DNA from: an uncultured Eubacteriales bacterium
GTDB lineage: Bacteria; Bacillota; Clostridia; Christensenellales; UBA1242
Assembly (NCBI GenBank): GCA_949031345.1
Contig: CARNVA010000004.1
Span: 468-64,467, forward strand
Direction: 5' to 3'
DNA length: 64,000 nucleotides
Positions 1 through 61,726 of the stretch are shown in pieces. The position numbers and the translations under genes are program-made. A model generated the notes under the pieces. The model was not told where the DNA came from. It saw only the letters and a list, made by a program, of their open reading frames with translations, and did no database searches. The stretch's first letter is position 1, and the number at the start of each line of letters is the position of its first letter.

Positions 1-210
1 ATTATTTAATTTACACTCAATTAGAGTAGTTCCACCGCCAACAAATTGATCTAAAACTAAATCATTTGGCTCCGAATAGCGAAGTATAATATTTTTTGCA
101 ACATACGGTGAAAAGTTTCCTCGGTATTTTGCATCATGAGTTGCCCATTTGCCACGGTTAGGAAAACTCCAAACAGTATTGGTTTCAAGCTCAAATTTTT
201 CTTCTTTCAT
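1..210 (-). CDS. DNA methyltransferase, N-terminal fragment (gene runs off the window start)
   Basis: The ATG at 208-210 overlaps the stop of the upstream endonuclease gene (TAATG). My translation is MKEEKFELETNTVWSFPNRGKWATHDAKYRGNFSPYVAKNIILRYSEPNDLVLDQFVGGGTTLIECKLNN. It contains an AdoMet-binding FxGxG-type motif (DQFVGGGTT). Confidence 0.5.
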   Translation of the reverse strand, partial: MKEEKFELETNTVWSFPNRGKWATHDAKYRGNFSPYVAKNIILRYSEPNDLVLDQFVGGGTTLIECKLNN

Positions 211-1073
211 TATTTGAGTAATTCCTTTAGTTTACCATTTTCTAATTCTTTGAGATTATAGATGTCATCCATAATATCAAAGGTTTCTTCCAAATTATGT
301 CTGGCACTTCTCCAAGCAGTTCCATCAGTTATCCAAACAAATTTAAATTTAGGAATACTTTTTGATTCTTCACTTAGCATTTTATAACTTCTTGCTGTTT
401 CGTTGAGTTTAGATCCTCCACCAAATCCGCCATAAAAGTTTGTTTCAATTGCATAAATACAATTATTTGTTTTTACAACAAAATCAAATCGCTTTTTTGC
501 TTTGCCATTATTAGAAAGAGCAGATAAATTAATATTCCATCTTTTTTCAATATCTGCCAAATACATTTCTTTAAAATAAGAAACATCCTTTTTTAGCCCA
601 ACATTAATAAGATGCTTTTCTACCATATCTTCCATAAGGTGTCCGCCACGATTTTTTCTTCCATTAGAATCCAACCCTACTTCAACACCAAGAACATAAT
701 CAACTAAGTTATTTATTATTCTATTTGAAATTAGTTCAAATAAACCTGATTTTTCCATAAACTCTGACAAAACATTAATATCCAAACTTTTATTAAATAC
801 AAAGTTTATATCCTGATTGTTATCATTAACCCTTATTTCATTACCTCTAACCGCAAGAAGAATAGGGATGCATTTAATGGTTTCGGGATACTTTTTTAAT
901 AAGTCCACAAAATCAGTTTTAATATTTTTTGATCCAACAAGTGAGTTTAAAATATTCAATTCAACTTTTATATTATCAACGTTGTTGTACACTTTTACAA
1001 AATCAACATAATAGGTATAATTTGAAATGCTCACTCTAAATTGGTTTAACCATTCTTTAAAATCTCTTTTCAT
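210..1073 (-). CDS. DpnII-family type II restriction endonuclease (GATC-type)
   Basis: 287-aa ORF. The N-terminus (FKEWLNQFRVSISNYTYYVDFVKVYNNVDNIKVELNILNSLVGSKNIKTDF) closely parallels my recollection of the pneumococcal DpnII endonuclease. It shares an operon with a Dam-type methylase. Confidence 0.7.
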   Translation of the reverse strand: MKRDFKEWLNQFRVSISNYTYYVDFVKVYNNVDNIKVELNILNSLVGSKNIKTDFVDLLKKYPETIKCIPILLAVRGNEIRVNDNNQDINFVFNKSLDINVLSEFMEKSGLFELISNRIINNLVDYVLGVEVGLDSNGRKNRGGHLMEDMVEKHLINVGLKKDVSYFKEMYLADIEKRWNINLSALSNNGKAKKRFDFVVKTNNCIYAIETNFYGGFGGGSKLNETARSYKMLSEESKSIPKFKFVWITDGTAWRSARHNLEETFDIMDDIYNLKELENGKLKELLK

Positions 1074-1076
1074 GTG

Positions 1077-1913
1077 TTATTCTCCTTTAATCTCTACGAG
1101 TGTTTTGTCCTTAGAATAATGCCAAAGGGCAATTTTAGGAATAAAAATATTGTTTTCAGAGATCAAGCCTTCTTCTTTAAAAATTTTAGTTACGCCACCT
1201 AAATATGTGCGTTCAGCATTTATATTTAATGAGTATTGCTTATCATTAATAATCAGGCTTAATTTTGCTGAATCTTTAGGTAATTCTTTCTCAATTTCTG
1301 ATGGTATCCTTAAAATTCTAGCACGAATATCGTTTAAACTAATCTTTTTGCTGACAACAATATCATAAGTATCGGCTTTTTGCTTATCTATCGCATGTTC
1401 GATTGACTTTTTCTTTAATGTTAAGTTCTCCAAAGCATTTGCATCAAAAACGGGTTTTAAGTTAAATCCCAACCCTATTGAAATACATTGTTGCACTAGA
1501 GTTCTACCATCTATTAAAATAATCTGTCTTGATTTATCTTCTTCCGCAAATTCTTTTGCTCCAGCAGGGAATTTTGCCGTTGTAATAAATATCCCTTTAT
1601 AATTCAACGGCATTACACCTCTTAACTCTCTTAAATCTTTTATGGATATTGTAGAAGATGGCTTATAACGTTTTGCTTGAATATAATATTTTACTTCATC
1701 TAAGTTAGACAAACCGTTAATTCCTGATTTTATACATGTCAAATCTATACCACCATCTCTTGATCTCTGTGTTACAGCAACTTCTTCGAGCCCGATTTTT
1801 TCTAAAAAGTATTTCAAGAACTCTTCAAATTCATAGCCATTATCAAATGAACTATAAAGTTTTTCCACACTTTCTTTTAATTCATTATCCGATAATTCTA
1901 TAATATTACTCAT
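1077..1913 (-). CDS. Mrr_cat (PD-(D/E)xK) nuclease-domain protein with an uncharacterised, possibly B3-like, C-terminal domain
   Basis: 278-aa ORF. The N-terminal half shows the Mrr_cat pattern (GYEFEEFLKYFLEKIG...RDGGIDL...YYIQAKRY). The C-terminal ~110 aa (KKISLNDIRARILRIPSEIEKELP...LIINDKQYSLNI...GGVTKIFKEEGL) resembles a B3/EcoRII-N pseudobarrel by eye. The start overlaps the Dam stop by 8 nt. Confidence 0.6.
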   Translation of the reverse strand: MSNIIELSDNELKESVEKLYSSFDNGYEFEEFLKYFLEKIGLEEVAVTQRSRDGGIDLTCIKSGINGLSNLDEVKYYIQAKRYKPSSTISIKDLRELRGVMPLNYKGIFITTAKFPAGAKEFAEEDKSRQIILIDGRTLVQQCISIGLGFNLKPVFDANALENLTLKKKSIEHAIDKQKADTYDIVVSKKISLNDIRARILRIPSEIEKELPKDSAKLSLIINDKQYSLNINAERTYLGGVTKIFKEEGLISENNIFIPKIALWHYSKDKTLVEIKGE

Positions 1914-2817
1914 CAGTTTTTCTCCTTTTGTAATTCAATACAACAATTTCAGTTATATCTCCTCGCCTGCTAGCTTGGCAATTTATCATTCTTTTTGCAA
2001 AAACTCTTTCAATTTCAAATCCTTCATATATATCATCAAAGAAATTATCTTCTTCATTAGTGTTCTTTGGATCAGAGTTTGAAAGCATTAACAAACAACC
2101 TTTTTTATTGAGTTCTTTATAATTATCTGCAAGTTTAATTTGATCGTTATCATCAAAACCTGATTTATCATAGCTCACAAAAGAATTCTTTTCTATAAGT
2201 GGTCTATATGGTGGGTCAAAATATATAAATGCATTTTTATCTGCTTTGTCTAAAACTTGTTCATAACCCCCAAAATTAATTTCTACTCTTTGCAATAATT
2301 TAGAGCATAATCTCAAATTGTCTTGGTCGCAAATTAATGGATTTTTATATCTACCATGTGGCACATTAAATTTGCCATCCCTATTAACACGATAAAGTCC
2401 ATTAAAACAAGTTCTATTTAAGAATATAAAGTCAGCACATTTTTCAAAGTCCAGATGTCCGTTTAAGTGAATTTCATTATATCTGTTTCTTACTTCGTAG
2501 AAATAACTGTTTCTATCTACACAAGATAAATATTCATTTTCTAATGCTTTTAATTGCTTTATAACTTCTTCAATATCTGCCTTAATGCAACGATAACAAT
2601 TTATAAGTTCTTTATTGATGTCATTAATATATGCTTTTTTTATTTCATAATTTTGCAACACATTGAAAAGCACAGCACCACCACCAACAAACGGCTCAAT
2701 ATATGTTTCAATTTTTCCATCAATTAATGCTTGCGGATACAGTTCTTCAAACTTGTTTAGAAGTTGACCTTTTCCACCAGCCCACTTTAAAAAAGGTTTA
2801 GCAACTCCTTTACACAT
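1906..2817 (-). CDS. Dam-family N6-adenine DNA methyltransferase (GATC-type)
   Basis: 303-aa ORF with KPFLKWAGGKGQLL, EPFVGGGAVLFN (FxGxG) and FIYFDPPY (DPPY) motifs typical of the Dam/DpnM D12 class. Confidence 0.85.
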   Translation of the reverse strand: MCKGVAKPFLKWAGGKGQLLNKFEELYPQALIDGKIETYIEPFVGGGAVLFNVLQNYEIKKAYINDINKELINCYRCIKADIEEVIKQLKALENEYLSCVDRNSYFYEVRNRYNEIHLNGHLDFEKCADFIFLNRTCFNGLYRVNRDGKFNVPHGRYKNPLICDQDNLRLCSKLLQRVEINFGGYEQVLDKADKNAFIYFDPPYRPLIEKNSFVSYDKSGFDDNDQIKLADNYKELNKKGCLLMLSNSDPKNTNEEDNFFDDIYEGFEIERVFAKRMINCQASRRGDITEIVVLNYKRRKTDE

Positions 2818-4363: not shown

Positions 4364-7300
4364 TTACAATGCTGTATACCCAAGCTCTGCAAGTTTTTCC
4401 ATTGTTAAGTTTCCTCCGCTGCTGCTTATCCATGAAAACCCTTTTGGCAATGGTTGATCGTTTACTGCCAGTGTCCAGTTTGCAAATGGGTTTGTTTCGC
4501 TGCTATGGGTCACATACTTCTTTACTATGTTGTCGTTATCCTTGTTCTGTATATACAAGCTGCTCTTGATTGTTCCGCTTCCCTTTGTAATGGCATAGTT
4601 TGTTGTAGAGTTTGCAAAGCAGTCAATTACGCTTCCGCCGTTTAAGTTGCCTGTAAGAAGGCCTGTATTACTTCCTCCTGTTACGCTTCCAATAAAACCA
4701 CATGATTGCAAGGTTATTCCGCTTGTTGTTGTTTGGCCGAGTATTCCTCCACAGTCTGCATTTGATGCCGACGCTGTTACGCTGCCCTTCATATAGCAGT
4801 TTTCAAGGCGTGTACCTGTTCCGCCATTACGCCCAAGGATTCCTCCTACATAGTCATTTCCGTTTACGCTTCCATAGTTATAGCTTGACAAAATTGATGT
4901 GCTTACTCCATAGCCTATCATTCCTACATTGTTGTGTCCTGTCACTGTTGCTCCGCTTCGGCAGTTTTCTATGCTTCCGTTGTTGAGGTTGCCGACTATC
5001 GAGCCAACATTATCATAGCCTCGGATAGTACCCGATATGATATTCACATTCTTTATCGTTGCATTTCTTGTATAACCAAACAGACCTACATTTGAATAGA
5101 GATAATAGCCAGATTCACTCTCAACTCTCGCACTTGAGGTGGTAAGATTTGTTATCAAATAACCATTGCCATCATAATTGCCTTGAAAAGCTGTCTTCTC
5201 ACTGCCTATCGGCAACCACAATCTTCCACTTAAATCTATACTTTCAGTCTGCTTAAAATACTTTCCTGCAAAAGTTATACCATTTGCCACCGCTTTTGAA
5301 ATGTACGCAAGGTCTTCCTTGCATGAAATAAAATATGGATCGTTTATTGTTCCACTTCCAGTTAGACCGCTTGAAGCATAAGTGTTCCATGTTTCATCCC
5401 ACTGCGCAAATAAGGTAATATTATTTGTAAAATTTGAAACATATTGTCTTTCATAAAATTTTGTACCACTGCCATTAGCACTTGTGTTCCAACCTTTAAA
5501 TAAATAATCATTTCTAGAAAACGCATTGCTTGTCAACTGTTTAGCAGCACTGTTGTAAGTCAATTGCATACTTTCCATGTTGCCAACTCCGCCATTTGAA
5601 TTAAAGCAAATGTTTATTGTTTTAGGCGTCCAGTGTGCATATAATGTATGATTACCCACAATCGTCACCGTTGCATTGCTTTCGATCTTACTTCCACCAC
5701 TTAAATCTGTATACCAGCCATCAAAGTCATAGCCTATTCTGTCATTAACAAGAGGCAGATGTCCATAACTCGAATTAAATTTTACATTTTTTTCGACATT
5801 ATTTCCATTCATCACCCAATCTTTCAATTCGTAAATGTAAAAACTTCCTCCGTTTGCATTGGCCGTGACTTTATAAGTGTTTGCCTCCCACACTGCATAC
5901 AAATCAACGGTAGAAGCACCAGCAGTCGTCAATTTGCTTACACTTGCTCCATCAGAATAGATTACTCCACCGTTTGCGCTTGTAGCCCATCCTTTAAATG
6001 TATATCCCGGCCGGACAAAAGTATTCCTTTGTAAAGCATGAGGTGTGCCATATGTAAACCCGCCTTGTGATGTTGTTGTATACGGAGAAAAGTTGGAATT
6101 AAACCGGACTGAATATGATATCCCTGTCCAGTGCGCGTAAATAGTGTGATCGCATGCCGTTGTCATTTTTGTAGAAGAGCTTACCACTGTTCCACCAATT
6201 GCTTCTGTATACCATCCTGTAAAATTATAGCCCGTTCTTGTAGGTGTTGGAAGTGTGTCATAAGTTGAATCATAATTGATACTTTTAGTTGCTATAGACC
6301 CACTGCCAGTCCATCCAGTTGTATATGGAATGCTTCCGTATTCGCCATTTACATCTGCAGTCACCGTGTATGAATTTGATACCCAATGTGCATATATTGT
6401 GCGGTTGCCTAAAGTTGTCACTTTTGTAGAAGATGAAACATATGTCCCGCCACTTGCTGAGGTATACCAACCTAAAAAACTATCTCCCGTTCTTGTAGGT
6501 GTTGGAAGGTGGCCATATTTGCTGTCATAATAAACCGTCTTTTTTGAAGTTAAAACACTTCCGCCATTGGGATCAAAGAGCAAATCATATTCATTTGCAG
6601 GACAATACGCATAAAAATAAGGGTTTATAGTGTAGGCTACACAATCGGCATTATTCTGATATGTCGAAAGTTTTACATTGTTTGAGTCTCTCCATTCTTG
6701 AAAATGATAACCCGTCTTAACAGAAGTTGCAGGCAAACGGTATTTCTTACCATATTCTGTTGTCACCGAACCTATATAACTGGTTGTAGTACCGACATCA
6801 GGAGAGTAATATTTGTGATAGTGCTTGGCATCTACAGATTTTGCTGACACATAAAAATCCACCTTGAATGAAACATTTCCCCAGATTCCAACAGCAAGTT
6901 GAGCATTTTTGCTACTATCGTAGTTAGCATCTGCATAACTATCAAAATTGGTTACTTTCTTCTCAAACTTCTCAAAATCACCATCCGCATATATATTTGC
7001 ATAAACATCATAATAATATGACCTAAACCCTTCAAGGTATAAGTTTACAGCACAGTCTTTATTACTGATGGCTGAGCCTGAAGTTGAGCTTGAGTTTGAT
7101 GTTGATGAAGAGTTTATGAAGGCGTGCCCCCAGTCAAAGTCTGGGTCTGGGCCATCTATGCCCTGTTTAACATTATAAGAAGCACCGGGCCCGTAAATTG
7201 AGTATGTATGTCCGTCAGAGGTGACTGATAAAGTATTCTTAGTTGCATCCAAATTGCTTTTCAACGCGCCACCACTTGCATAAAGATATATGGTCGTTCT

Positions 7301-7426
7301 TATCGTCTTTGCGTCAGTCTGTATATTTTTAAGCTGTGGCGTAAAAAGAATAAGCAATCCACATGCCAAACAAATCAAACATATAAATGAAAGTGAAAAA
7401 TATTTAAAATTTCTTTTCATTTTCAT
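4364..7426 (-). CDS. Large surface protein A: Listeria-Bacteroides (Flg_new) repeats plus a C-terminal GLUG-repeat module
   Basis: 1020-aa ORF with an N-terminal hydrophobic signal/anchor (FSLSFICLICLACGLLILF). About 5 repeats carry the G(Y/F)xFxGW(Y/N)T...(T/L)(I/L)YA(H/V)W signature. The C-terminal ~330 aa has GLUG-like units (NVGLFGY, VGSIVGN, VGGILGR, CGGILGQ). It is paralogous to 37270-40659, 49856-53407 and 58570-61593. Confidence 0.8.
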   Translation of the reverse strand: MKMKRNFKYFSLSFICLICLACGLLILFTPQLKNIQTDAKTIRTTIYLYASGGALKSNLDATKNTLSVTSDGHTYSIYGPGASYNVKQGIDGPDPDFDWGHAFINSSSTSNSSSTSGSAISNKDCAVNLYLEGFRSYYYDVYANIYADGDFEKFEKKVTNFDSYADANYDSSKNAQLAVGIWGNVSFKVDFYVSAKSVDAKHYHKYYSPDVGTTTSYIGSVTTEYGKKYRLPATSVKTGYHFQEWRDSNNVKLSTYQNNADCVAYTINPYFYAYCPANEYDLLFDPNGGSVLTSKKTVYYDSKYGHLPTPTRTGDSFLGWYTSASGGTYVSSSTKVTTLGNRTIYAHWVSNSYTVTADVNGEYGSIPYTTGWTGSGSIATKSINYDSTYDTLPTPTRTGYNFTGWYTEAIGGTVVSSSTKMTTACDHTIYAHWTGISYSVRFNSNFSPYTTTSQGGFTYGTPHALQRNTFVRPGYTFKGWATSANGGVIYSDGASVSKLTTAGASTVDLYAVWEANTYKVTANANGGSFYIYELKDWVMNGNNVEKNVKFNSSYGHLPLVNDRIGYDFDGWYTDLSGGSKIESNATVTIVGNHTLYAHWTPKTINICFNSNGGVGNMESMQLTYNSAAKQLTSNAFSRNDYLFKGWNTSANGSGTKFYERQYVSNFTNNITLFAQWDETWNTYASSGLTGSGTINDPYFISCKEDLAYISKAVANGITFAGKYFKQTESIDLSGRLWLPIGSEKTAFQGNYDGNGYLITNLTTSSARVESESGYYLYSNVGLFGYTRNATIKNVNIISGTIRGYDNVGSIVGNLNNGSIENCRSGATVTGHNNVGMIGYGVSTSILSSYNYGSVNGNDYVGGILGRNGGTGTRLENCYMKGSVTASASNADCGGILGQTTTSGITLQSCGFIGSVTGGSNTGLLTGNLNGGSVIDCFANSTTNYAITKGSGTIKSSLYIQNKDNDNIVKKYVTHSSETNPFANWTLAVNDQPLPKGFSWISSSGGNLTMEKLAELGYTAL

Positions 7427-7521
7427 AGGCTCCTATATTTAGTTTAACAAATTTTTTATAATATAAACTATATAAAGCTTTTCAATAACATTTATTATAA
7501 AATAATAAATAATATAATTTA

Positions 7522-7549
7522 ATTTTACCCCCCCCCGATTTATTGTCAA
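7522..7549 (-). promoter_or_regulatory. Sigma-A-type promoter with a G9 tract in the spacer (surface gene A)
   Basis: Minus strand 7549->7522 reads TTGACA ATAAATC GGGGGGGGG TAAAAT. The plus-strand C9 is at 7528-7536 and the spacer is 16 nt. The promoter lies ~95 nt upstream of the ATG at 7426. Confidence 0.7.
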
Positions 7550-7649
7550 ATGTTTTACCGTATTTTTTTTTACTTTAGTAATTTTTCTTAAAAATCGTTT
7601 TCTAAAAATCAACATCAACATAATAATTTAAATATGATTTTAGACAATA

Positions 7650-7685
7650 AAAAACCCTTCTTAATAATAAGAAGAGCCTTTTTAT
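7650..7685 (-). terminator. Rho-independent terminator of the 7688-7921 gene
   Basis: The minus strand reads GGCTCTTCTTATTATTAAGAAGGGTTTTTT: a stem-loop followed by a T run. Confidence 0.6.
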
Positions 7686-36761: not shown

Positions 36762-37028
36762 TTATGAGCAAGCAGAAACTATCAACCCAATAAACATCAA
36801 AAATACAACAAGCCCAATCATAACGCCAAGCCCGATAAGCCAGCCTTTAATAAAAGTCTTTCGTTCATACTCATATTGTGGCAATGGATATAAAAGCAGG
36901 CCGACAATAAGCCCGATTATTCCAAGCAGAAATAAAAGTATCCCAATTCCAAGTTTTGATTGTCTTTTGAAAGAAAGACCTTTAAAATCTTCCCCATTTT
37001 GCCCATTCTTATCTTCAAAATGTTCCAA
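36762..37028 (-). CDS. Small membrane protein (paralog of 42600-42895)
   Basis: The in-frame TTG at 37026-37028 is preceded by AAGGTGGGAGAAT. The product is (M)EHFEDKNGQNGEDFKGLSFKRQSKLGIGILLFLLGIIGLIVGLLLYP...ERKTFIKGWL... The tracked ORF start (TTG at 37076) is actually the -35 hexamer. Confidence 0.55.
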   Translation of the reverse strand: MEHFEDKNGQNGEDFKGLSFKRQSKLGIGILLFLLGIIGLIVGLLLYPLPQYEYERKTFIKGWLIGLGVMIGLVVFLMFIGLIVSACS

Positions 37029-37049: not shown

Positions 37050-37076
37050 ATTATACCCCCCCCCGAAATATGTCAA
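37050..37076 (-). promoter_or_regulatory. Sigma-A-type promoter with a G9 tract in the spacer (small membrane-protein gene)
   Basis: Minus strand 37076->37050 reads TTGACA TATTTC GGGGGGGGG TATAAT. The plus-strand C9 is at 37056-37064 and the spacer is 15 nt. Confidence 0.65.
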
Positions 37077-37269: not shown

Positions 37270-40200
37270 TTAATATTGCTCAAATCCCCATTTTACAAGG
37301 TCTTCTGTTGTTATGCCTTTATTCCCTCTTGCAAGCCACGAAAGTCCATCTGGCAGCGGTTGCCCAGTATCAGTAATAATCCAAGCCGAAAAGTCACTTC
37401 CTATAAAATGCTTTTGTATGCCCTCGATTTCATAAATTGAGTTGTTTACCACAACATTTTCTATATCCATCGCACTCCAAACAGAAGATTTTGCAAAGCA
37501 GTTGTTGACAGAGCTTTTGATATCACTGTTTACTTGACCGACAATAAGCCCTAAAAAGTCGCCGCCAACAATATCACCCATATAGCCACAAGCTGCAATT
37601 CTTATTACGCTTGCGTTTGCACAACCCAAGATGCCGCCGATGTACATTTCACCAGAAATATTACTTTTTGAAAAACTATTTTCAATTGCGATGAAGTTTT
37701 CAGTTGTAATGGTGCCATTGTAAAAGCCAATTATTCCACCCAAATTATATTCGCCAGTAATATTGCCATAGTTGAAACACCCAACAACTTTAACATCCTC
37801 GCCTCTGCCTATCATTCCACAAGAGTCATAACCAACGATTTTTACTCCACTTCGGCAATTTTCAATCAAGCCTGTGTACGCAACTCCGACTAACGAGCCC
37901 ACATTTTCATAACCATAAACATTTCCAGAAACAATATTTATATTTTTAAGTATTGCACTGTTGCAAAAGCCAAACAAACCGACATTTGAATAAATTTGAT
38001 TTCCATAAGCATCAACCACATCAATAGTTTTTAAATTGCTTATTAAAAAACCTTGCCCGTCATAAACGCCCTTAAAAGCACGCTGACTATTATCTGTCCC
38101 AATTGGAAGCCAAATATTGTCTAAAAGGTCAATTGGTCTTGTTTGCTTAAAGTATTTATCACCGAAAGTTTCACCATGTTTAACTCGATATGATAAATAT
38201 GCCAAATCTTCAGCACTTGAAATTAAATATGGTGAGCTTTCATCGCCATTACCTTGAAAAGCCTCTGTTCTATTTAAAATCGGCAAATGCCAAGTTGTAT
38301 CCCATTGTGCATAAAGTGTCAAATTTGCAGTAAGATTGCTTATTGCACTGTTTTCAAGATAAATCTCACCACCATATTGCGAAGTTGACCAATGTTTAAA
38401 AGTATATCCCTCTTTAACAAAAGCATTATCTGCAAGCCTCACAAAGCCTGCATCATAGGTCACCGATTGAGAAGGCATGCTTCCACTGCCACCATTGCCA
38501 TAAAAAATTATTGAATATGTTTTTGGCCTCCAATGAGCGTAGAGAATGCTGTCTCCTGCGATATTGTATTTTCCTGTTGTATCAACTTTTGTTCCGCCAG
38601 TCGCACTTGTCCACCAACCCTCAAAGATATATTCTCCATCTTTTGTTGGCGTTGGAATATCACCATAGACTTCATCATAAGTGACCTCTTTGGTAATTTC
38701 TTCTGCAACTTCGTTTGACGAGCTTATCAAATCAAAAGCGATTTCATAATCTATATTATTACCAATAAACTTAGCACTGATTGGTGCAAAGAAATAGAAA
38801 TAAAAGACATGGCTTCCAGCACTGATATCTGAAAATATAACACGAGTGCTTCCGCTTAAATTTTTCGTGGTCCAATATGGCTTATCGTATGAAAAGCTGT
38901 CTAATTGAGTAACTCCGAAGTCCACAGCGTAAAGGTCTTTACCCGTTTTTTGTTTAATATCAAAGCTTATAGACAAACTTATCCTAGCATCTTTGATGGC
39001 AACAAAACTTACCGAATATAAAGCGTCCCCTGCCCAAAATCCACCTTTTATCTTTCCGCCAGTTTCAGTCTTTGCTATTCCAGGGCCATAAGTCAAATTA
39101 CTTATTATTTCGTTGCTTTTGAAATCAAAGTATCCGCTATTTGCGTTTAGCGTCAATTCATAATTATTTGGTTTCCAAATTGCCTTGAAAGTTTTCGTCC
39201 CATTGGCTCCTAAATAAGGGACTTTGTCTATTCTGCAAGTTCCATCAGCGTTTGCATTATAAAAATAGTTTGTATAACCAGGTTGTGTGCATTGCCAACC
39301 AACAAGACTATAGCCTCTTTTTACAGGCACAGGGAAGCTGTATGGTCTCCTTTCTATGACGCCACTTTGACTTGAAGATGAGCTATCATTATATATGCCA
39401 CCATTATAATCAAGACAGAATGTATATTCTTGGAAAAGTGTTGAGATGGCTTTTGAAAGATTGAAGTGAAGCGCTGGTCGAACAGCAAGTGACTGATTTA
39501 CATATTCGCCGTCCCCTTGTGCTCCATTTGGAAAAAGAAGCATGCCATACAAAGAGCTGTCAAGAAATGCCGACCTGGTCCACGAGTATGTATAAACTCC
39601 ACTATTGTTTCTAGTGCCAACTGTTCCTAACAAGTCAGTTGTGCTGCCGTTGAAATTTTTTCGTTGGTTATTTGACAAACCCCACATACCAGGATGAGAG
39701 CTGCTATCACCAGTTTCTGAAATGCTAGGCAGCCATATAAAATCATTGCTCCAGGCACTATTTAATGATTTATTTGCATAATTGTAATAGCTTCTCTTGG
39801 AAGAATTATAATAAAAACGATAAGACGTTCCATTATAAGAGCCCGAATTTGGAATGCTTGATGACCAATTTTCATTCGAAGCAGAATATGCTACACCTAT
39901 ATAAGTCCTAGTATTTTGACCATACTCCTGCCATTGAACATTTGCCGGTTTAACTAAGTATTCGGTAACATTTCCGCTCACACTCGACATAGTAAACTTT
40001 GCAAAAGGGCTGTCAGTACTTTGAGAGCCTGGATTCAAAGCATTGCTTCGTGCAGCATAAGACCCACCATTATTTAAAGTAGCCGACCTTATATAACTTA
40101 GCCCATACATGTTTGATGGATTATGACTACTTGGTGCATCCTCTCTCCAATTTGCAGACCAATCTGAATATAACCCGCCATTCAACAGCCCATGATAATT

Positions 40201-40659
40201 ACCTAAATTTTTGGTTGTAGAGCCCCAAGCTTCCTGCTTGCAGTTTGTAAGCCATAAAGTAATAATGGTATTGCCCGAGGTGTCTTTTGAAAGATAAACC
40301 ACCTGCCAATCAAGTCCACCAAAACGAACAACAACATCTTGCGAAGAGGTCTTATTGTATGTCTTTGACCTTATAATTGAAGCTTTTGTTTTGGATGAGG
40401 CCATACCATCAATAGTTGCCTTATTTGAAATAGTGGTGTCGGCGCTTCCAGAAATATATTTAAGAAGGGTATTTAAATTTGTTTCTGAAAAACTGCTTCC
40501 ATTATAAAGCTCATCAACCTTAACATAGGATGTTGTATCAGTTGAGGTAATAGCCTCCGTTTGCTTGATAATTCCACTATATTGAAGCCCCATAAGAAAA
40601 CTGCATAAAGCAAAAAGGAGACAAGACATTGTTACTGAAATCCTCCTCAATAATCTCAT
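37270..40659 (-). CDS. Large surface protein B: distinct N-terminal region, Flg_new repeats and a GLUG-repeat C-terminal module
   Basis: 1129-aa ORF with a GGAGGTGAGATATG RBS and a signal/anchor. The N-terminal ~400 aa (VVVRFGGLDWQVVYLSKD...IWLPSISETG...YSWTRSA) is possibly DUF6273-like. Flg_new units are present (GYSLVGWQC, FEGWWTSATGGT...LYAHW, GYTFKHWST...LYAQW). The conserved C-terminal module is SPYLISSAEDLAYLSYRV...GLFGF...LGGIIGF...IGGILGC...QPLPDGLSW. Confidence 0.8.
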   Translation of the reverse strand: MRLLRRISVTMSCLLFALCSFLMGLQYSGIIKQTEAITSTDTTSYVKVDELYNGSSFSETNLNTLLKYISGSADTTISNKATIDGMASSKTKASIIRSKTYNKTSSQDVVVRFGGLDWQVVYLSKDTSGNTIITLWLTNCKQEAWGSTTKNLGNYHGLLNGGLYSDWSANWREDAPSSHNPSNMYGLSYIRSATLNNGGSYAARSNALNPGSQSTDSPFAKFTMSSVSGNVTEYLVKPANVQWQEYGQNTRTYIGVAYSASNENWSSSIPNSGSYNGTSYRFYYNSSKRSYYNYANKSLNSAWSNDFIWLPSISETGDSSSHPGMWGLSNNQRKNFNGSTTDLLGTVGTRNNSGVYTYSWTRSAFLDSSLYGMLLFPNGAQGDGEYVNQSLAVRPALHFNLSKAISTLFQEYTFCLDYNGGIYNDSSSSSQSGVIERRPYSFPVPVKRGYSLVGWQCTQPGYTNYFYNANADGTCRIDKVPYLGANGTKTFKAIWKPNNYELTLNANSGYFDFKSNEIISNLTYGPGIAKTETGGKIKGGFWAGDALYSVSFVAIKDARISLSISFDIKQKTGKDLYAVDFGVTQLDSFSYDKPYWTTKNLSGSTRVIFSDISAGSHVFYFYFFAPISAKFIGNNIDYEIAFDLISSSNEVAEEITKEVTYDEVYGDIPTPTKDGEYIFEGWWTSATGGTKVDTTGKYNIAGDSILYAHWRPKTYSIIFYGNGGSGSMPSQSVTYDAGFVRLADNAFVKEGYTFKHWSTSQYGGEIYLENSAISNLTANLTLYAQWDTTWHLPILNRTEAFQGNGDESSPYLISSAEDLAYLSYRVKHGETFGDKYFKQTRPIDLLDNIWLPIGTDNSQRAFKGVYDGQGFLISNLKTIDVVDAYGNQIYSNVGLFGFCNSAILKNINIVSGNVYGYENVGSLVGVAYTGLIENCRSGVKIVGYDSCGMIGRGEDVKVVGCFNYGNITGEYNLGGIIGFYNGTITTENFIAIENSFSKSNISGEMYIGGILGCANASVIRIAACGYMGDIVGGDFLGLIVGQVNSDIKSSVNNCFAKSSVWSAMDIENVVVNNSIYEIEGIQKHFIGSDFSAWIITDTGQPLPDGLSWLARGNKGITTEDLVKWGFEQY

Positions 40660-40810: not shown

Positions 40811-40839
40811 ATTTTACCCCCCCCGGTAAATTTTGTCAA
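40811..40839 (-). promoter_or_regulatory. Sigma-A-type promoter with a G8 tract in the spacer (surface gene B)
   Basis: Minus strand 40839->40811 reads TTGACA AAATTTACC GGGGGGGG TAAAAT. The plus-strand C8 is at 40817-40824 and the spacer is 17 nt. Confidence 0.7.
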
Positions 40840-42599: not shown

Positions 42600-42895
42600 T
42601 TAACAAATAAACATTAAGCTTGCAGCCGCACTAAGCACTGTAGCATAAAGAATAATAACGATAACTACATACACAGCGAGTGAAACGAAGAAGCACCAAA
42701 GCCATCCTTTAAGGAAAGTCTTGCGTTCTAAAGAGCCGTCTTTATAAAGCAAAAGACCAATAATAAGCCCAATAAGCCCAATAAAGCCACACAAAACACC
42801 AATACCAACTTTAGAGGCCCCCCATTAGTGTTGCCTTGGTTTTGAACATTGTTTGTGTTGTTGTCACTGTATTGATTGTTGTTTTGTTCTTCCAT
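42600..42895 (-). pseudogene. Small membrane protein (paralog of 36762-37028) with its frame broken at a G6 run
   Basis: ATG at 42895 after AAGGAGG gives MEEQNNNQYSDNNTNNVQNQGNTNGG, then runs out of frame at C6 (42818-42823). G7 would fuse it to ...ASKVGIGVLCGFIGLIGLIIGLLLYKDGSLERKTFLKGWL... (tracked ORF 42600-42794). Confidence 0.65.
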
Positions 42896-49855: not shown

Positions 49856-52800
49856 TTACATTTGATTAAATCCAAGCTCAGTCAATTTTTCAATGGTAAG
49901 TTTTTCTCCGCCTTCGCCAAGCCAAGCTAAGCCTTTTGGAAGAGGTTGACCATTCTCTAAAATAGACCAATTTTCAAAAGGATTTTCCAAAGTGCTTATT
50001 TTGTAATATTTTTTCTCTGAGGATCCCCCTTTATTTTCTATAATTAAAGTGCTTTTTATAGAAAATGAAGATCGAGAAAATGGCAGAAAAGCTGAAGCAA
50101 AAGCAAAGCAATCCACAACTTCACCATCCATTCTTCCACAGAATTGACCTGCCCCGCTTCCTCCTTGCACTGTTCCCAGCACACCACAACTTCTAATAAT
50201 ATTGCCAGTTGTATTGTCAGCATTACCAAGAATGCCTCCACTATTAGAATAATTTGCGGCAGCTTTAATAAACGCATCAACAAAACAATTTTCAATTACA
50301 GATTTCTCTTTTGAAATTGCGCCAGCTATTCCCCCAACACTATTCAAACCTGTCAAATTTCCATAATTTAAACAAGAAGATACTGTAAAGCCTGAAACTG
50401 CGCCAAACATTCCACAATATGCATATCCATTTACATTCACACTGCTTTTGCAATTTATCGCAGCTCCTGTATCAGAATATCCTGTTATCGCCCCTGAATA
50501 ATACTGCCCAAAGACATTTCCTTTTACAAGGTTGATATTTTTTAACACTGCACCTTTGCTGAAACCAAAAAGACCAACATAGTTGTAAAGATAGATTTCA
50601 CCCAAAGCCATATAATAAGTCTGAACAAGTCTCATATTTAAAATCGGAAAGCCCTGCCCATCATAAATTCCTTGAAAGCTGTTTCCAGTATTCGTCGCGC
50701 TGACAGTCGAGCCGCCAATTGGTCGCCATAAATTGTATCCAAGCTCAATAGGTGCGGTCTGCTTAAAATATTTGCCAGCAAAAGTCACTCCTTCTTCAAC
50801 TCTCTTTGAAATATAAGCCAAATCCTCAGCACTTGCAATCAAGTATGGATTTTCTGCGCTGCCTTGATTTTCAGTCTGGCTTGCTTGAAGTGTATTTGAC
50901 GCAAAAATGTTCCAAGTCTCCTGCCACTCTGCCCTCAATTCAAACAATCGGTCACTGCTGTCAACAACGCTGCTTGGCAGTGTGCTTATTGTCGCTCCGT
51001 CATAATAAGCTTTGCCATTGTTTGTCCAATTTCTAAACAAATATCCTGTTTTTAAATATGAAATGGTTGGCAAAGTCAAACTTGTGCCATAGGTGTAAAC
51101 CCTGTCTTGCATCTGTCCTGAGGTATGCCCATTGCCATTAAATCTGATGGTATATTGTTTTGGCGTCCACTTAGCATACAAGGTAAATGATGACAAATAG
51201 CTTGTATATGGGCTGCTTGAAATGCTATTCAAAACCTTTCTTTCTGAAAGCGGCGCCCCTTCATTATCTTGCAAACTTTCACCATTTTCAAATTCGACTC
51301 CGCCTCCTAAAGACTTTGCCCAGCCTACAAAATCATAACCCGTGCGAGTAAACTCATTGTTTTTAATCTCTTGGCCGTTGCCATAAACGCAACTTTGACT
51401 GGTCATGCTTCCATTTCCGCCATTTGCATTAAAATTTATTGTATAAGGCCTTCCACTCCAAACTGCATACAAATCGAATACTTCATTCTCATTCGACCTC
51501 AAGTTTGAAACGCTTTGCCCTGGATTATAGACCTTGGTTTGTCCAGCACTGCTTGTATCCCATCCAAGCAAGGTAAACCCATGCCGGACAAACTCATTCG
51601 CTTTAAGGTTTTGCGACTGATTGTATGTAAATTGCTGTGATATGGATTTTTTCCCGTCACCCGTGAGAATGTCTCCACCAGCACTGTTTTTTCCGCCATG
51701 AAAGGTTACACTATATTTAATAGGCGTCCAATGCGCATAAATTGTGTGATTATTAGCTATATTCAAAATCGTAGAAGTAGAAATCTTTGTTCCGCCCGTC
51801 TGCGCTGTAAACCATCCGTCAAATTTATATCCTGTTCTGCTTACAGAAGGAAGATATTGATAGGTTTCTCCAAAGATTACATTTCTTATGCAACCTTCAC
51901 CAGAAATTACCCAGCCGGTAGTGGAAGTAAAACTTCCGCCATTTGCATCCGCTGTAGCCAGATATGTCATTGGTGCCCATTGCGCATAAAGCGTCACATT
52001 GCCAATTATATCATACTTTTTTATTGCTTGACCGTTCTCATTATAATATTGGGTCCCGCCCCTTCCAGAACTAGTATAATAACCTTTGAATCTATATCCA
52101 GTTTTTACAGGAATTTTCACAGTGTTCATTTCCTTGCCAAGCCAAACATTGCAAGAACTATCACTTGAGTTTTGAAAACTGCCACCATCCGCATTAAAAC
52201 TTGCAGTATATTTTATTTCATCAAGCTCACCATTTGTATAGTAATCTCTATATCTTCCAGAAACATAAGATACATCAGAATAAAGCGTGCCTCTGCCACC
52301 CTTACTTCCTGTTGCGCCACCAATTCCACCGGTGGCTTGACTTAATACATCATTGCAATAAGTATCATAGTAGGCAGATTCTCCACTAGAACCACCAATT
52401 AACCCGGTACCACCGGAGCCACCAGCTCCACCGCTATATTTATATCCCTTTCTAGAAGTATAGGTGCCACCAGCACCTCCGCCGCCTCCGCCGCCTCCGG
52501 CACCTGCGCCACCACCAATTGCATCAGCATTAACAGAACCTGCGCCACCACCGCCGCCTGCTCCGCCTCCGCCAGAGGCGTAATAATTTTTCCAACCAGA
52601 ACCAGCATCATTTGCTGTTCCTCCAGCGCTGCCACCACTGCCACCTTTAAAATTTTGTTCTCTTCCACCAGCAGTTGCAATTACTGTAACTCCACCAAAG
52701 ACATACAGGTCACCCATTGCAGAGCCGTCACCGCCTTTATATCCATTTTTTCCGAAACCGCCCTGCGCGTCATATTGATCACCATATTCACATTCTTTTG

Positions 52801-53407
52801 TCGCACATACACCACCAGAGCCACCATAACCGCCAGAGCCGCCATAGCCACCAATTCCTGCGCCAGCACCTGAGCCTCCTCTGCCTCCGTCGCCACCAGT
52901 ACCACCTCTGTACTTGTTGTCACTAATTGAAAGATAACCATTATATCCACTATCTCCATTACCGCCGCTTCCCGCATTTCCACCAGTGGCTTTTAAAGAT
53001 CCTTCACCTACGACTATCAGTCTCTTTCCATAATGCAATGAAATTCCTGCCTCGCCAACACTAGCGGTTACGGTCACTGTAATATTTTTTGGTATATATA
53101 AAACAACAGTGCCGCTCACACTTGCTCCATAAGACATAGTCACATTACTAATTGCTTTATAGACAGTATCTGAATAAAAGTATTGCTTATTACTAAAAGT
53201 GCCATTCATTGTAATACACTTTGTAAAACCACTACTCGCATTAGCGACTTTTTCTTCTTCCAAATTTTTATACGAGGTCACAACTGAAAAATAAAATATA
53301 AAAAACGCAAGGCAAATAAAAAGACAAGAAAGATAAATCTTTCTCATTTCAGAGTTATTCTTTTTATGACTTATTTCATTCTTTAAACTTTTATTAAACT
53401 TTGCCAA
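49856..53407 (-). CDS. Large surface protein C: Gly-rich N-terminal region, Flg_new repeats and a GLUG-repeat C-terminal module
   Basis: 1183-aa ORF with a TTG start after GGAGG and a TM anchor (IYLSCLFICLAFFIFYFSVV). A ~230-aa glycine-rich region is followed by Flg_new units (GYRFKGYYTS, GYKFDGWFTAQTGGT...IYAHW, GFTLLGWDT, GYDFVGWAK, GYLFRNWT). The conserved C-terminal module is NPYLIASAEDLAYISKRV...GLFGF...VGGIAGA...SGGILGN...QPLPKGLAW. Confidence 0.8.
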   Translation of the reverse strand: MAKFNKSLKNEISHKKNNSEMRKIYLSCLFICLAFFIFYFSVVTSYKNLEEEKVANASSGFTKCITMNGTFSNKQYFYSDTVYKAISNVTMSYGASVSGTVVLYIPKNITVTVTASVGEAGISLHYGKRLIVVGEGSLKATGGNAGSGGNGDSGYNGYLSISDNKYRGGTGGDGGRGGSGAGAGIGGYGGSGGYGGSGGVCATKECEYGDQYDAQGGFGKNGYKGGDGSAMGDLYVFGGVTVIATAGGREQNFKGGSGGSAGGTANDAGSGWKNYYASGGGGAGGGGGAGSVNADAIGGGAGAGGGGGGGGAGGTYTSRKGYKYSGGAGGSGGTGLIGGSSGESAYYDTYCNDVLSQATGGIGGATGSKGGRGTLYSDVSYVSGRYRDYYTNGELDEIKYTASFNADGGSFQNSSDSSCNVWLGKEMNTVKIPVKTGYRFKGYYTSSGRGGTQYYNENGQAIKKYDIIGNVTLYAQWAPMTYLATADANGGSFTSTTGWVISGEGCIRNVIFGETYQYLPSVSRTGYKFDGWFTAQTGGTKISTSTILNIANNHTIYAHWTPIKYSVTFHGGKNSAGGDILTGDGKKSISQQFTYNQSQNLKANEFVRHGFTLLGWDTSSAGQTKVYNPGQSVSNLRSNENEVFDLYAVWSGRPYTINFNANGGNGSMTSQSCVYGNGQEIKNNEFTRTGYDFVGWAKSLGGGVEFENGESLQDNEGAPLSERKVLNSISSSPYTSYLSSFTLYAKWTPKQYTIRFNGNGHTSGQMQDRVYTYGTSLTLPTISYLKTGYLFRNWTNNGKAYYDGATISTLPSSVVDSSDRLFELRAEWQETWNIFASNTLQASQTENQGSAENPYLIASAEDLAYISKRVEEGVTFAGKYFKQTAPIELGYNLWRPIGGSTVSATNTGNSFQGIYDGQGFPILNMRLVQTYYMALGEIYLYNYVGLFGFSKGAVLKNINLVKGNVFGQYYSGAITGYSDTGAAINCKSSVNVNGYAYCGMFGAVSGFTVSSCLNYGNLTGLNSVGGIAGAISKEKSVIENCFVDAFIKAAANYSNSGGILGNADNTTGNIIRSCGVLGTVQGGSGAGQFCGRMDGEVVDCFAFASAFLPFSRSSFSIKSTLIIENKGGSSEKKYYKISTLENPFENWSILENGQPLPKGLAWLGEGGEKLTIEKLTELGFNQM
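52300..52990 (-). repeat. Low-complexity GGN-rich coding region (glycine-rich domain of protein C)
   Basis: The plus strand is dominated by imperfect ccacc/gccgcc/accagc units and encodes GGTGGDGGRGGSGAGAGIGGYGGSGGYGGSGG...GGGGAGGGGGAGS...GGGAGAGGGGGGGGAGG. GC content here is locally much higher than in the rest of the window. Confidence 0.8.
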
Positions 53408-53506: not shown

Positions 53507-53534
53507 ATTTTACCCCCCCCCGACACATTGTCAA
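53507..53534 (-). promoter_or_regulatory. Sigma-A-type promoter with a G9 tract in the spacer (surface gene C)
   Basis: Minus strand 53534->53507 reads TTGACA ATGTGTC GGGGGGGGG TAAAAT. The plus-strand C9 is at 53513-53521 and the spacer is 16 nt. Confidence 0.7.
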
Positions 53535-58569: not shown

Positions 58570-61500
58570 TTATGCTTTTGAAAAGCCACTTTCACTTAAA
58601 TCAAATTCAACTTCAGTGCTGCCACGCCATATAAGTGCTCTTGGTAAAGGCTTTCCGTCTTCTAGCATTATCCACTGTGAAAAATCTTCTCCAACATATT
58701 TTTTAACGCCATTAAACTCAAATAAGCAATTCAATACCGTCGCTTCCCCATAATATTGCAAAACGAAGCCATCGGCATTATTCAACAATTTTGAAAAGCA
58801 GTTTTCTATCGTTCCACTTAAAACAGAATAGCCAACAAACAAGCCTCGTTTGCCACTTGCTACTTCCATATTTTCCTCAAAACAACAAGCTGAAAGTATA
58901 AAGTTTTGAGCAGCATAGCCTATCAGCCCACCACAATAGTTTGAAGCAATCAAGCTCATTTTTGACATGCAGTTTTTCATTTCAAAATTTATTCCCGAAA
59001 CTTCACCAATCAGCCCTCCAACCTTATCACCTGTCGCTGAAATGCTTCCATAACAATAGCAGTTTTCAACAGAGACATTATCTTTTACTCGGCCAATAAC
59101 ACCTCCTACTTTTGCCGAAGCTTTAATTTCTACAGACGCGGAAGAGCCCACTATAACTGCATTTTCTGCTTTGCCAACTATCGCTGCCACCTCTTCATTT
59201 CCAGAGACTTTGCCAAATAATCTGACATTTTTAATAATGACTGGATTATCTATTTTCTCACCTTCAACACGACCGAATAGTCCTTGACAATTATCATAAT
59301 AGCCATTGATAACATTTATTCCTTCTATCTTAAAACCCTGTCCATCAAAACAGCCTTTAAAAGCAAAATCCTCACTGCCAATTGGCTTCCATATATTATC
59401 ACTTAAATCAATGTTTGCTGTTTGTTTAACTTGAAATCTGGAATTATTGATTTCACATTCACTTGCAAGCCAAGCAAGCTCTTGGGCATTTGAAATGAGA
59501 TAAATTCCACCTTCATTTTTAGGTTGTTTAATATTTGATAAATGGGCCCAACTGTCTTGCCATTCTGCAGTTAAAGTCACATCTTCTGCCTTGATTATCG
59601 TATTCTCACCTGCAATAAGCCCATTCACATCAAACCAGCCCAGAAAAATCTGTCCCCTCTTGGTCGGTTTTGGCAAATATCCAAAAGCAGAATTATATTC
59701 AATATCTTTAACAGCCATTCCATTCTCAATTTTCCATCCATTCATGTTGATGGGATAACTTCCACCTTTAATGTCAAGTTTCAGTTTATAATGATTTATT
59801 TCCCAAATAGCATGGAGATTTATGATTTCGCCCTCTTTTGAGGCCAAGTTTTTCACAATCTGCTCATCATAATATAGAGGCTCTTTCGCACTTGAGTCAG
59901 TATTCCAGCCCACAAATGAATAGCCCTCTTTTGTAAAGCTGTTTGAAGAAAGAGCATTGCCTTGCTCAGAAGCGCTTTTGTAAATAAAGTTTTGATTTGG
60001 CATGGAGCCTATTCCACTATTGCCATTAAAACAAACGCTATAACTATTTGCCCGCCACTGAGCAAAGAAGGTTGCAATGACTTCATTATTGCCAAGATTT
60101 GGCATAGTTAAATATAAACTTTGGTCGGAAGAATTGGTCTGATAAATTACATCGTCAAAACTGCATCGCCAGCCCGTCAAAGTGTAACCTTCCTTCTTAG
60201 GAATTGGGAAATAATACCCCTGCCCAAACTTTAGTTTGGTTGAAGAAGAGGAAGAATTATCAGAATTGAGTCCACCGTTGAAATCAAATACAACATTATA
60301 ATCATTTTCGAGCCACTGTGCATAAATCGAGTGTGCCGATCCCTTATTCATAACAGTGCTTGAAGTCACCTCTGTGCCTCCACTTGAAGCAAAATACCAG
60401 CCTTTTAAATGACAACCATCCCTTATAACCTGCGGAAAATTTCCATAATTGGTCAAATATGTAATATCTTTCTTCGCATTGTCGCCATTCTTAGTCCAAC
60501 CATTTAAGTTAGAGCCCAGCTTGCCTCCATTGACATTTGCAGTGACCGCATAACTACCTTTTTCCCATTGAGCATAAATGTAAGCAAGCGTTTCAAACCC
60601 AAAAGTTGTTGACACAGTAACCTCTGTACCTCCACTCGCTTCAGTAAACCAACCTTTCAAGACATAACCAGTCCTTGACACAATTGGAAAGCTTCCTAAA
60701 GGATTGCCATAGGCTATATTTTTTGTAATAGAACTTGCAATTTGATTCCAACCATTTGCAGAAACAAGAGTGCCTCCATTTGTATAAGCACTTACCGAAC
60801 AAGTTTGAGCTCTCCACTGTGCATAAAGAGTCATAGACGGCGGTGCAACTTTTAATGCAGCACCACTGCTGCTGAAATAATCATCGCCTCTGCCATCAGC
60901 TCGAGAGTTATAGCCCAAAAATGTATGTCCAGTTTTAGTAGGACAGGTTATTGATGACATGCTCATCCCATAACTTACTCGTTTGCTTGATGTTCCACCC
61001 GACCCGCCTTGCTTATCAAAGGTAAGCGTCACACCACTTGCCACCGAATAAAACAAAGGTGTTATAATTATTTCTTCGTCAAAAGAGGCCGAATTCGAAT
61101 AATTGTTTACATCTGTTTGCGACATTCTCCAATATGTTTCTGAGCTTATTTTAGTCCAACCATAATCGCTATTGTTTTCATACCAGCCTGCAAATTTAAC
61201 TACACTTGAAGATGAAAGATAAAAACTTAAGGCTATTGGATAATAATCTGTGGTAGAATTAAGAGACAGATTATGAGGCAAACTATAAACTATTTCATCA
61301 TAAGAATCGTCTGAATAGAGATACATGCTTGGTCGATTGATATACACTTTTTCTTGGTCGCTTGAAGATATATCTTTTACACTTATTCTATTTGACGATG
61401 GGGCACTTGTTGAAGCATATAGTCTTGGCCCTGCCACTTTTAAAGTGTAATTTGCAGCACTGACAGAATTTTCGCTTATTTTAGCAATCTTGTCATAAAA

Positions 61501-61593
61501 AAGCTTTCCCATTCCAGATATGGTGAATATCCCCATGAGGCACAAAAATATTGCAATGAAAGATAATACTATAAAGTTTAAATTCTTTTTCAT
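58570..61593 (-). CDS. Large surface protein D: Flg_new repeats and a divergent GLUG-repeat C-terminal module
   Basis: 1007-aa ORF with a signal/anchor (FIVLSFIAIFLCLMGIF). Flg_new units are present (GHTFLGYNS...LYAQW, GYVLKGWFTEASGGT...IYAQW, GCHLKGWYFASSGGT, GYTLTGWRC, GYSFVGWNT, GQIFLGWFD). The C-terminal module is IYLISNAQELAWLA...GLFGR...VGGVIGR...VGGLIGE...CGGLIGY...KPLPRALIW. Confidence 0.8.
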   Translation of the reverse strand: MKKNLNFIVLSFIAIFLCLMGIFTISGMGKLFYDKIAKISENSVSAANYTLKVAGPRLYASTSAPSSNRISVKDISSSDQEKVYINRPSMYLYSDDSYDEIVYSLPHNLSLNSTTDYYPIALSFYLSSSSVVKFAGWYENNSDYGWTKISSETYWRMSQTDVNNYSNSASFDEEIIITPLFYSVASGVTLTFDKQGGSGGTSSKRVSYGMSMSSITCPTKTGHTFLGYNSRADGRGDDYFSSSGAALKVAPPSMTLYAQWRAQTCSVSAYTNGGTLVSANGWNQIASSITKNIAYGNPLGSFPIVSRTGYVLKGWFTEASGGTEVTVSTTFGFETLAYIYAQWEKGSYAVTANVNGGKLGSNLNGWTKNGDNAKKDITYLTNYGNFPQVIRDGCHLKGWYFASSGGTEVTSSTVMNKGSAHSIYAQWLENDYNVVFDFNGGLNSDNSSSSSTKLKFGQGYYFPIPKKEGYTLTGWRCSFDDVIYQTNSSDQSLYLTMPNLGNNEVIATFFAQWRANSYSVCFNGNSGIGSMPNQNFIYKSASEQGNALSSNSFTKEGYSFVGWNTDSSAKEPLYYDEQIVKNLASKEGEIINLHAIWEINHYKLKLDIKGGSYPINMNGWKIENGMAVKDIEYNSAFGYLPKPTKRGQIFLGWFDVNGLIAGENTIIKAEDVTLTAEWQDSWAHLSNIKQPKNEGGIYLISNAQELAWLASECEINNSRFQVKQTANIDLSDNIWKPIGSEDFAFKGCFDGQGFKIEGINVINGYYDNCQGLFGRVEGEKIDNPVIIKNVRLFGKVSGNEEVAAIVGKAENAVIVGSSASVEIKASAKVGGVIGRVKDNVSVENCYCYGSISATGDKVGGLIGEVSGINFEMKNCMSKMSLIASNYCGGLIGYAAQNFILSACCFEENMEVASGKRGLFVGYSVLSGTIENCFSKLLNNADGFVLQYYGEATVLNCLFEFNGVKKYVGEDFSQWIMLEDGKPLPRALIWRGSTEVEFDLSESGFSKA

Positions 61594-61697: not shown

Positions 61698-61726
61698 ATT
61701 TTATAATTAAACAAGCGTTTCGTCAA
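61698..61726 (-). promoter_or_regulatory. Homologous promoter of surface gene D without a homopolymer tract
   Basis: Minus strand 61726->61698 reads TTGACG AAACGCTTGTTTAATTA TAAAAT, with a 17-nt spacer. It has the same TAAAATTAAA -10 context as genes A and C. Confidence 0.55.

Follow-up and report, generated by a model that had tools for sequence, protein, structure and literature searches.

Control of transcription by slippage of a repeat within the promoter spacer is a textbook mechanism. In the gut microbiota, studies of phase variation have concentrated on invertible promoters, and repeat-slippage switches are known mainly from pathogens.

In the porA gene of Neisseria meningitidis a G homopolymer fills the spacer of a surface-protein promoter, and slippage by one base alters the distance between the two hexamers; as PMC7864442 summarises, expression peaks at a spacer of 17 nt and declines with shorter spacers. 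The Treponema pallidum gene tp0126, which encodes an OmpW homologue, likewise carries a poly-G tract between -35 and -10, for which an optimal spacer of 17 nt was shown experimentally (PMC7864442). Several poly-G tracts are scattered through the T. pallidum genome; G9 is the commonest length, variants range between G7 and G11, and the majority of the tracts tested vary (PMC7864442). In the mycoplasmas several paralogous surface-protein genes have a spacer switch of their own, and for vlp of Mycoplasma hyorhinis, maa2 of M. arthritidis and vmm of M. mycoides it has been established experimentally that indels in the spacer tract switch transcription (PMC2268961). Several promoters of paralogous surface-structure genes also contain a G:C homopolymer in Bordetella pertussis (fim2, fim3 and fimX), where single-base differences in the C stretch change the transcript levels (PMC1891110). 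A gut commensal, Bifidobacterium breve, switches a sortase pilus by slippage of an intragenic G tract (PMC9187656). The invertible promoters of gut Bacteroidales and Clostridia likewise exert stochastic control over the cell surface.

Here we describe a G9 tract in the promoter of a gene for a large repeat protein (gene A) from an uncultured mouse-gut Clostridia bacterium. The sporulation genes found in the species include SpoIIE, SpoIIR, YpeB and a gene for a SipL-domain protein. The window, that is, the whole stretch of DNA that was analysed, is 64,000 nt long and has a G+C content of about 36%. The features at gene A are the following.

7649 to 7682, minus strand: terminator-like hairpin with U run at the end of the gene for a 77-aa membrane protein (-15.7 kcal/mol, z = -4.56)
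7544 to 7549, minus strand: -35 hexamer TTGACA of the gene A promoter (promoter scan; same in 13 of 13 assemblies of the species)
7537 to 7543, minus strand: ATAAATC, the part of the spacer of promoter A that is not G; with G9 it makes up a 16-nt spacer
7528 to 7536, minus strand: G9 homopolymer, abutting the -10 hexamer (G9 in 12 assemblies, G8 in one, L173)
7522 to 7527, minus strand: -10 hexamer TAAAAT of the gene A promoter (promoter scan)
4364 to 7426, minus strand: gene A, 1020 aa, with a hydrophobic N-terminus (signal or anchor) and six Flg_new (InlB B-repeat) domains

The first-pass annotation of this DNA had read the promoter as TTGACA-ATAAATC-G9-TAAAAT with a 16-nt spacer. This reading is correct: the minus strand from 7549 to 7522 is TTGACA-ATAAATC-GGGGGGGGG-TAAAAT, and nine of the 16 spacer nucleotides are G. 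The hexamers were assigned by consensus and place the tract between the -35 and -10 elements; in the promoter scan they match a sigma-A-type promoter at 11 of 12 positions, which makes the promoter near-consensus. This core is unchanged across lineages in which the 5′ UTR and the gene body have diverged. The hairpin and U run upstream of the promoter, which are missing from the list of a simple terminator scan, indicate that gene A is a separate transcription unit, and promoter A stands alone between this hairpin and gene A. A weaker promoter-like site (TTGAAA-N16-TATTAT, 7485-7458) was reported by the promoter scan between the tract and the start codon and could, lying in the leader of gene A, allow transcription independent of the tract.

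Two further observations concern the same region. An ORF of 60 aa (7439-7621, minus strand) runs across promoter A and reads the G9 as Arg-Gly-Gly; it is annotated as a gene in public MAGs (L002, L174) and is almost certainly spurious. An A9 run (7563-7571), located 14 nt upstream of the -35 hexamer, is A8 in two of nine assemblies and is the only variable A/T run of 7-9 nt in the regions surveyed.

In the PDB, protein A matched the internalin B repeat only. Its C-terminal region is common to GLUG-containing paralogues. With a signal- or anchor-like N-terminus and Flg_new domains, protein A would be exposed at the cell surface. The gene differs considerably between lineages: identity is 92-96% over roughly the first kilobase and about 82% over roughly the last, the central Flg_new repeats (window 5275-6363) are replaced by barely alignable sequence in other lineages, and the alleles are only 49% identical over the whole protein. 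This suggests a cassette-like allelic replacement of the central region or diversifying selection on it. We also considered that the divergence of gene A starts at the promoter; this was rejected, because the first approximately 1,060 nt align at 92-96% and the divergence is that of the central repeat region. Downstream of gene A lies a DpnII-type restriction-modification cluster (DpnII, Mrr_cat nuclease and a D12-class methyltransferase; window 210-2817), which the strain of the window (L174) has but the other lineage looked at (L173) lacks, and which appears to be a strain-specific island.

The setting of this promoter differs from that of each of the described systems. porA is a single locus coding for an outer-membrane porin in a Gram-negative pathogen, and T. 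pallidum is a spirochaete pathogen in which fragment-length analysis and GFP reporters confirmed the effect, whereas here at least seven loci of an uncultured spore-forming gut Clostridia bacterium are described by comparison of assemblies alone. Some of the T. pallidum tpr tracts act outside the spacer, whereas the promoter tracts here lie within it. The mycoplasma tracts are poly-A or TA repeats that belong to lipoproteins of wall-less Mollicutes; here the tracts are poly-G, the genome is that of an AT-rich Clostridia bacterium and the proteins are large and contain InlB B-repeats and GLUG. In B. pertussis the tract is longer (C7-C19) and separates the site of the activator BvgA from the -10, while the consensus -35 and -10 elements of the promoters here suggest that they could be recognised independently of an activator, unlike fim. 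The B. breve tract resembles a coding tract of our species (42818-42823, see below) and, being intragenic, is unlike the promoter tracts. Invertible promoters depend on recombinases and inverted repeats and not, as proposed here, on a change of spacer length.

The first-pass annotation knew of no such switch for Flg_new proteins of spore-forming Firmicutes. In agreement with this, literature searches of incomplete coverage found no prior description for Flg_new proteins or gut Clostridia. A 2025 review of phase variation lacks the terms 'spacer' and 'Gram-positive', and its matched passages on Clostridioides and Bacteroides deal with invertible promoters and invertases. New here are a multi-locus set of poly-G tracts in an uncultured spore-forming commensal and the variation of their length in metagenomes, together with a hint that such tracts are common in gut anaerobes.

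The tract at gene A is one of a set. Altogether, the 64 kb contain only four G/C runs of at least eight nucleotides (7528-7536, 37056-37064, 40817-40824 and 53513-53521). All four are G on the minus strand and all have the context TTGACA-N6..9-(C)G8/9-TAWAAT, with spacers of 16, 15, 17 and 16 nt in that order. The three sibling promoters, the genes behind them and a promoter for comparison are the following.

37050 to 37076, minus strand: sibling promoter S, TTGACA-TATTTC-G9-TATAAT, 15-nt spacer (G9 in 13 assemblies, G8 in three)
36762 to 37028, minus strand: gene behind promoter S, encoding a membrane protein of 88 aa with two TM segments and starting at TTG (gene callers also give 88 aa in other assemblies)
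40811 to 40839, minus strand: sibling promoter B, TTGACA-AAATTTACC-G8-TAAAAT, 17-nt spacer in the window (G9 in nine assemblies, G8 in four)
37270 to 40659, minus strand: gene B behind promoter B, 1129-aa Flg_new paralogue
53507 to 53534, minus strand: sibling promoter C, TTGACA-ATGTGTC-G9-TAAAAT, 16-nt spacer (G9 in three of three assemblies)
49856 to 53407, minus strand: gene C behind promoter C, 1183-aa Flg_new paralogue
61698 to 61726, minus strand: plain promoter of paralogue D, TTGACG-N17-TAAAAT, without G tract (comparison case)

Runs of this length are not expected by chance. On the plus strand the window has 15 C runs of five nucleotides, three of six, one of eight and three of nine, but not a single one of seven. 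Seven G8 matches were counted, whereas 100 dinucleotide-preserving shuffles gave 0.6 on average and never reached seven; the earlier judgement that a G9 run is very unlikely by chance is thereby borne out. The recurrence of the design at three sibling promoters was also noted correctly, but one of the three drives the 88-aa membrane protein and not an adhesin; three of the four tracts in the window are located upstream of large Flg_new (InlB B-repeat) proteins. The products of genes B and C are 31-37% identical to protein A and have the C-terminal half in common with it. We rejected the possibility that the promoters are copies of a repeated or mobile cassette: the four sites align nowhere outside the hexamers and the tract, and with otherwise unrelated flanks they are not a repeated element.

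A fourth Flg_new/GLUG paralogue of the window, paralogue D (58570-61593, 1007 aa), is the one with the plain promoter. Its gene is located directly downstream of a gene for a TraG/VirD4-type coupling protein (61820-63826), which raises the possibility that paralogue D belongs to an integrated conjugative element. One strain carries an IS element inserted upstream of promoter S (L009 3095-3115, upstream of an rve transposase gene). This element has a G9 of its own (TGTGGAAAACTC-G9-TCGTAT) close to its end; promoter S is G8 in the IS-bearing contig L009 and G9 in the same strain background from another run.

Three additional loci outside the window were found via homologues of protein A, and a scan of contigs of the species for G runs revealed a tract within a coding region.

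Outside the window: promoter of the P0027 locus, TTGACA-TTTTTC-Gn-TAAAAT, with n = 8, 8, 8, 9 and 11 and identical 420-nt flanks
Outside the window: promoter of the P0006 locus, TTGACA-ATAAATC-G9-TAAAAT
Outside the window: promoter of the P0015 locus, TTGACA-ATATATC-G9-TAAAAT
42600 to 42895, minus strand: gene for a small two-TM membrane protein with an intragenic poly-G tract (42818-42823)

The set in this species thus comprises at least seven promoter-spacer tracts and at least one coding-region tract; the promoter tracts precede genes for Flg_new/GLUG surface proteins and for a small membrane protein. The coding tract lies in a paralogue of the 88-aa protein behind promoter S (36% identity, E = 6e-7); the gene caller missed this paralogue in the strain of the window. 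There the tract is G6 and the gene is frameshifted (OFF); G8 is also out of frame, while G7 and G9+A, found in other assemblies, are in frame and give proteins of 98 and 99 aa. In two contigs with 0 substitutions in 4.4 kb this tract is the sole difference. Judged by its reading frames, the gene looks like a frameshift-type phase-variable gene. Poly-G tracts in promoters and in a coding region point to transcriptional and translational use in the same organism, and the frame switching of the coding tract strengthens the interpretation of the promoter tracts as contingency loci.

We propose, with a probability of roughly 70%, that the tract at gene A is a hypermutable contingency tract, that is, a slipped-strand switch in the promoter spacer of the porA, tp0126 or vlp type. 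Promoter anatomy, the non-random recurrence of the design and length polymorphism between closely related genomes are the direct observations behind this proposal. Slipped-strand mispairing during replication would add or remove single G:C pairs. The tract would thereby set the distance between -35 and -10 to 15 nt (G8), 16 nt (G9) or 17 nt (G10) and would also shift the angular register of the two hexamers. The altered spacing and register would change the strength of the gene A promoter, and the outcome would be heritable, reversible subpopulations with differing amounts of protein A. We infer that transcription begins at this promoter, that expression depends on tract length and that clones switch internally; host IgA, phage or niche would be the selective agent.

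Alternatively, the G run might be a fixed cis-element, such as a rigid G:C spacer that fixes the basal promoter strength, a G at -14 or a site for a regulator of a surface-protein regulon, with incidental changes in length that were not selected for switching. We consider this unlikely, and the lengths of the tracts in other assemblies bear on it in both directions. Same-species assemblies came from mouse gut and consisted of MAGs, ENA and Logan assemblies and one JGI sample, which were found by exact-protein look-ups. The same loci were taken from these consensus assemblies and duplicates were removed by sample; since some of the NCBI MAGs may share reads with ENA or Logan assemblies, the tract counts are not all independent, and two variant calls come from contigs with about 5x coverage. 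The flank of site A gave 0 matches in a metagenome contig collection that seemingly does not contain this species, and look-ups with protein A and P0002 yielded no additional site-A promoters.

Comparison across MAGs, which the first-pass annotation had suggested as a check, showed variation of the tracts as a class and near-invariance of site A itself. Twelve of the 13 assemblies have G9 at site A; the lone G8 belongs to a lineage that is about 3% divergent (L173), G9 was found in 4/4 and 6/6 assemblies within two other lineages, and G10, which would give a 17-nt spacer, occurs in none of the 13. Site A is far steadier than site B (nine G9, four G8). Site S has 13 G9 and three G8, and site C is G9 in all three assemblies. 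The constancy of sites A and C is what a fixed element would show. So is the modal length of G9 at every promoter locus of the species, whether the remaining part of the spacer is 6, 7 or 9 nt long; this indicates that tract length is not tuned to a spacer of 17 nt, and the consensus spacers observed in the species span 14-18 nt, with 17 nt seldom among them. In addition, the base just 5′ of the tract is C at seven of seven promoter loci and is enriched in other taxa, which hints at a sequence-specific feature, and the poly-T of Mycoplasma agalactiae vpma adjoins the -10 without switching (PMC2268961).

The variation of the tracts as a class is difficult to reconcile with a fixed element. In six near-clonal contigs of a single run series, which are set apart by just 1-4 substitutions over 4.4 kb, the tract at site B is the only internal indel (three times G8 and three times G9). 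As a control, every homopolymer of at least 7 nt in the window was located by its 12-nt flanks in the same contigs. G/C tracts differed from the window in 13 of 40 run-by-assembly observations and A/T runs of 7-9 nt in 2 of 179, a difference of about 30-fold (Fisher p = 3e-9). Length polymorphism above the background indel rate therefore holds for the class of tracts; for site A alone, with one G8 in 13 assemblies and that in a divergent lineage, it is weak. Also against a fixed element are the range from G8 to G11 between identical flanks at the P0027 locus and the poly-G in the coding region, for which a switch of the reading frame is the only plausible effect. Moreover, there is no repeated protein-binding motif beside the tract, and the non-G bases of the spacer differ among the loci.

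Five of the 16 contigs that cover the gene upstream of gene A end within about 40 nt of tract A, one of them inside the tract. This is suggestive of length heterogeneity within samples. It was rejected as proof, because in some lineages single-base differences between strains begin a few bases past the -10, which leaves the contig breaks ambiguous.

If tract A is a spacer switch, a graded "volume control" is more likely than a strict ON/OFF switch. By analogy with porA the 16-nt spacer is probably partly active; at site A, G9 would be intermediate, G10 the maximum and G8 low. The earlier proposal of a slipped-strand ON/OFF switch is therefore retained with respect to slippage, in line with the length variation of the tract class, and modified with respect to its binary output.

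The second alternative is that TTGACA and TAAAAT are not the promoter that is used, and that the tract acts via the leader, via another sigma factor or via DNA structure near 7485-7458. The leaders are long (96-200 nt) and AT-rich, and that of gene A contains further promoter-like matches; in T. pallidum the poly-G of tprL overlaps the -10 region and does not set the spacing (PMC7864442). We regard this explanation as improbable. The -35 hexamer is perfect and the -10 hexamer near-perfect at seven of seven loci, with the tract always abutting the -10, and the Rfam gathering scan of the whole window gave no matches and thus no known leader RNA.

Surveys of other taxa speak to the same question. 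In the first, one genome per species was searched with the pattern TTGACA-N5..10-G8-TAWAAT, which yielded at least 119 loci (L020-L138). The matches listed come mostly from gut Clostridia and Christensenellales-like MAGs, and also from Treponema, Streptobacillus, Helicobacter and others; among them G9 is the modal tract (61 of 124). By a crude heuristic, 72 of the 103 first downstream ORFs of the matches listed begin with a signal- or TM-like segment, compared with 33% of background ORFs. A Flg_new-like protein is located downstream in only one of the 103 listed, so that the association of the tract with Flg_new proteins is specific to this species and not general. The second survey searched metagenome contigs for TTGACA-N-G(8 or more)-TAWAAT with spacers of 11-22 nt allowed and gave at least 120 loci (L183 onward). 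Among the matches listed, 105 of 121 sites have a spacer of 15-20 nt (flat model p = 4e-15); a restriction to 15-20 nt when 11-22 nt were allowed is expected if both hexamers are functional. The hexamer distance of 15-20 nt among the matches listed in two independent surveys likewise argues against use of a different promoter.

Within this range the spacers of the matches listed in both surveys are most frequent at 15-16 and 18-19 nt and dip locally at 17 nt, the canonical optimum; when the surveys are pooled, just 23 of the 133 listed sites in the 16-18 nt class have 17 nt (p = 4e-5). This dip may mean that populations are OFF by default or that G-rich spacers have another optimum. A C directly precedes the tract at 58-68% of the listed survey sites, compared with 33-39% for G4-G7 runs at the same loci. 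As a sequence pattern, the putative poly-G spacer design is widespread in gut MAGs of many phyla.

An artefact of sequencing or assembly, such as Illumina poly-G miscalls or homopolymer errors, is very improbable: homopolymers are prone to error, two variant calls come from the contigs with about 5x coverage and contigs tend to break at tract A, but the tract occupies the same position in over 40 contigs that NCBI, ENA, JGI and Logan assemblies with differing pipelines provide, lies inside unique sequence away from read or contig ends, shows both G8 and G9 repeatedly in several independent runs and is accompanied in the same contigs by A/T runs of equal length that are almost invariant. An inverton is likewise not supported, since the promoter has a single orientation in all 40-plus contigs and no recombinase gene adjoins gene A.

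Beyond the slipped-strand spacer switch at gene A itself, we see an even chance that poly-G spacer phase variation is, next to invertons, widespread and largely unrecognised in gut Firmicutes and other gut anaerobes, and that the tracts of this species, at least seven in promoters and at least one in a coding region, form a coordinated phasome that controls InlB-B-repeat/GLUG surface proteins and small membrane proteins, with consensus spacers systematically shifted away from 17 nt, a low or OFF default and a minority of ON variants, possibly under selection by IgA or phage. On the practical side, poly-G tracts break assemblies and shift gene calls, as seen here with the spurious 60-aa ORF and the small frameshifted gene that was not called. 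Taken together, gene A, the sibling promoters and the two surveys of other taxa suggest that surface proteins of uncultured commensal Clostridia, and of many other gut lineages, are also under the control of spacer-length switches. Because such poly-G switches can be read from metagenomic reads, they would offer a culture-free view of which surface antigens are expressed and of how these respond to IgA, phage and diet.
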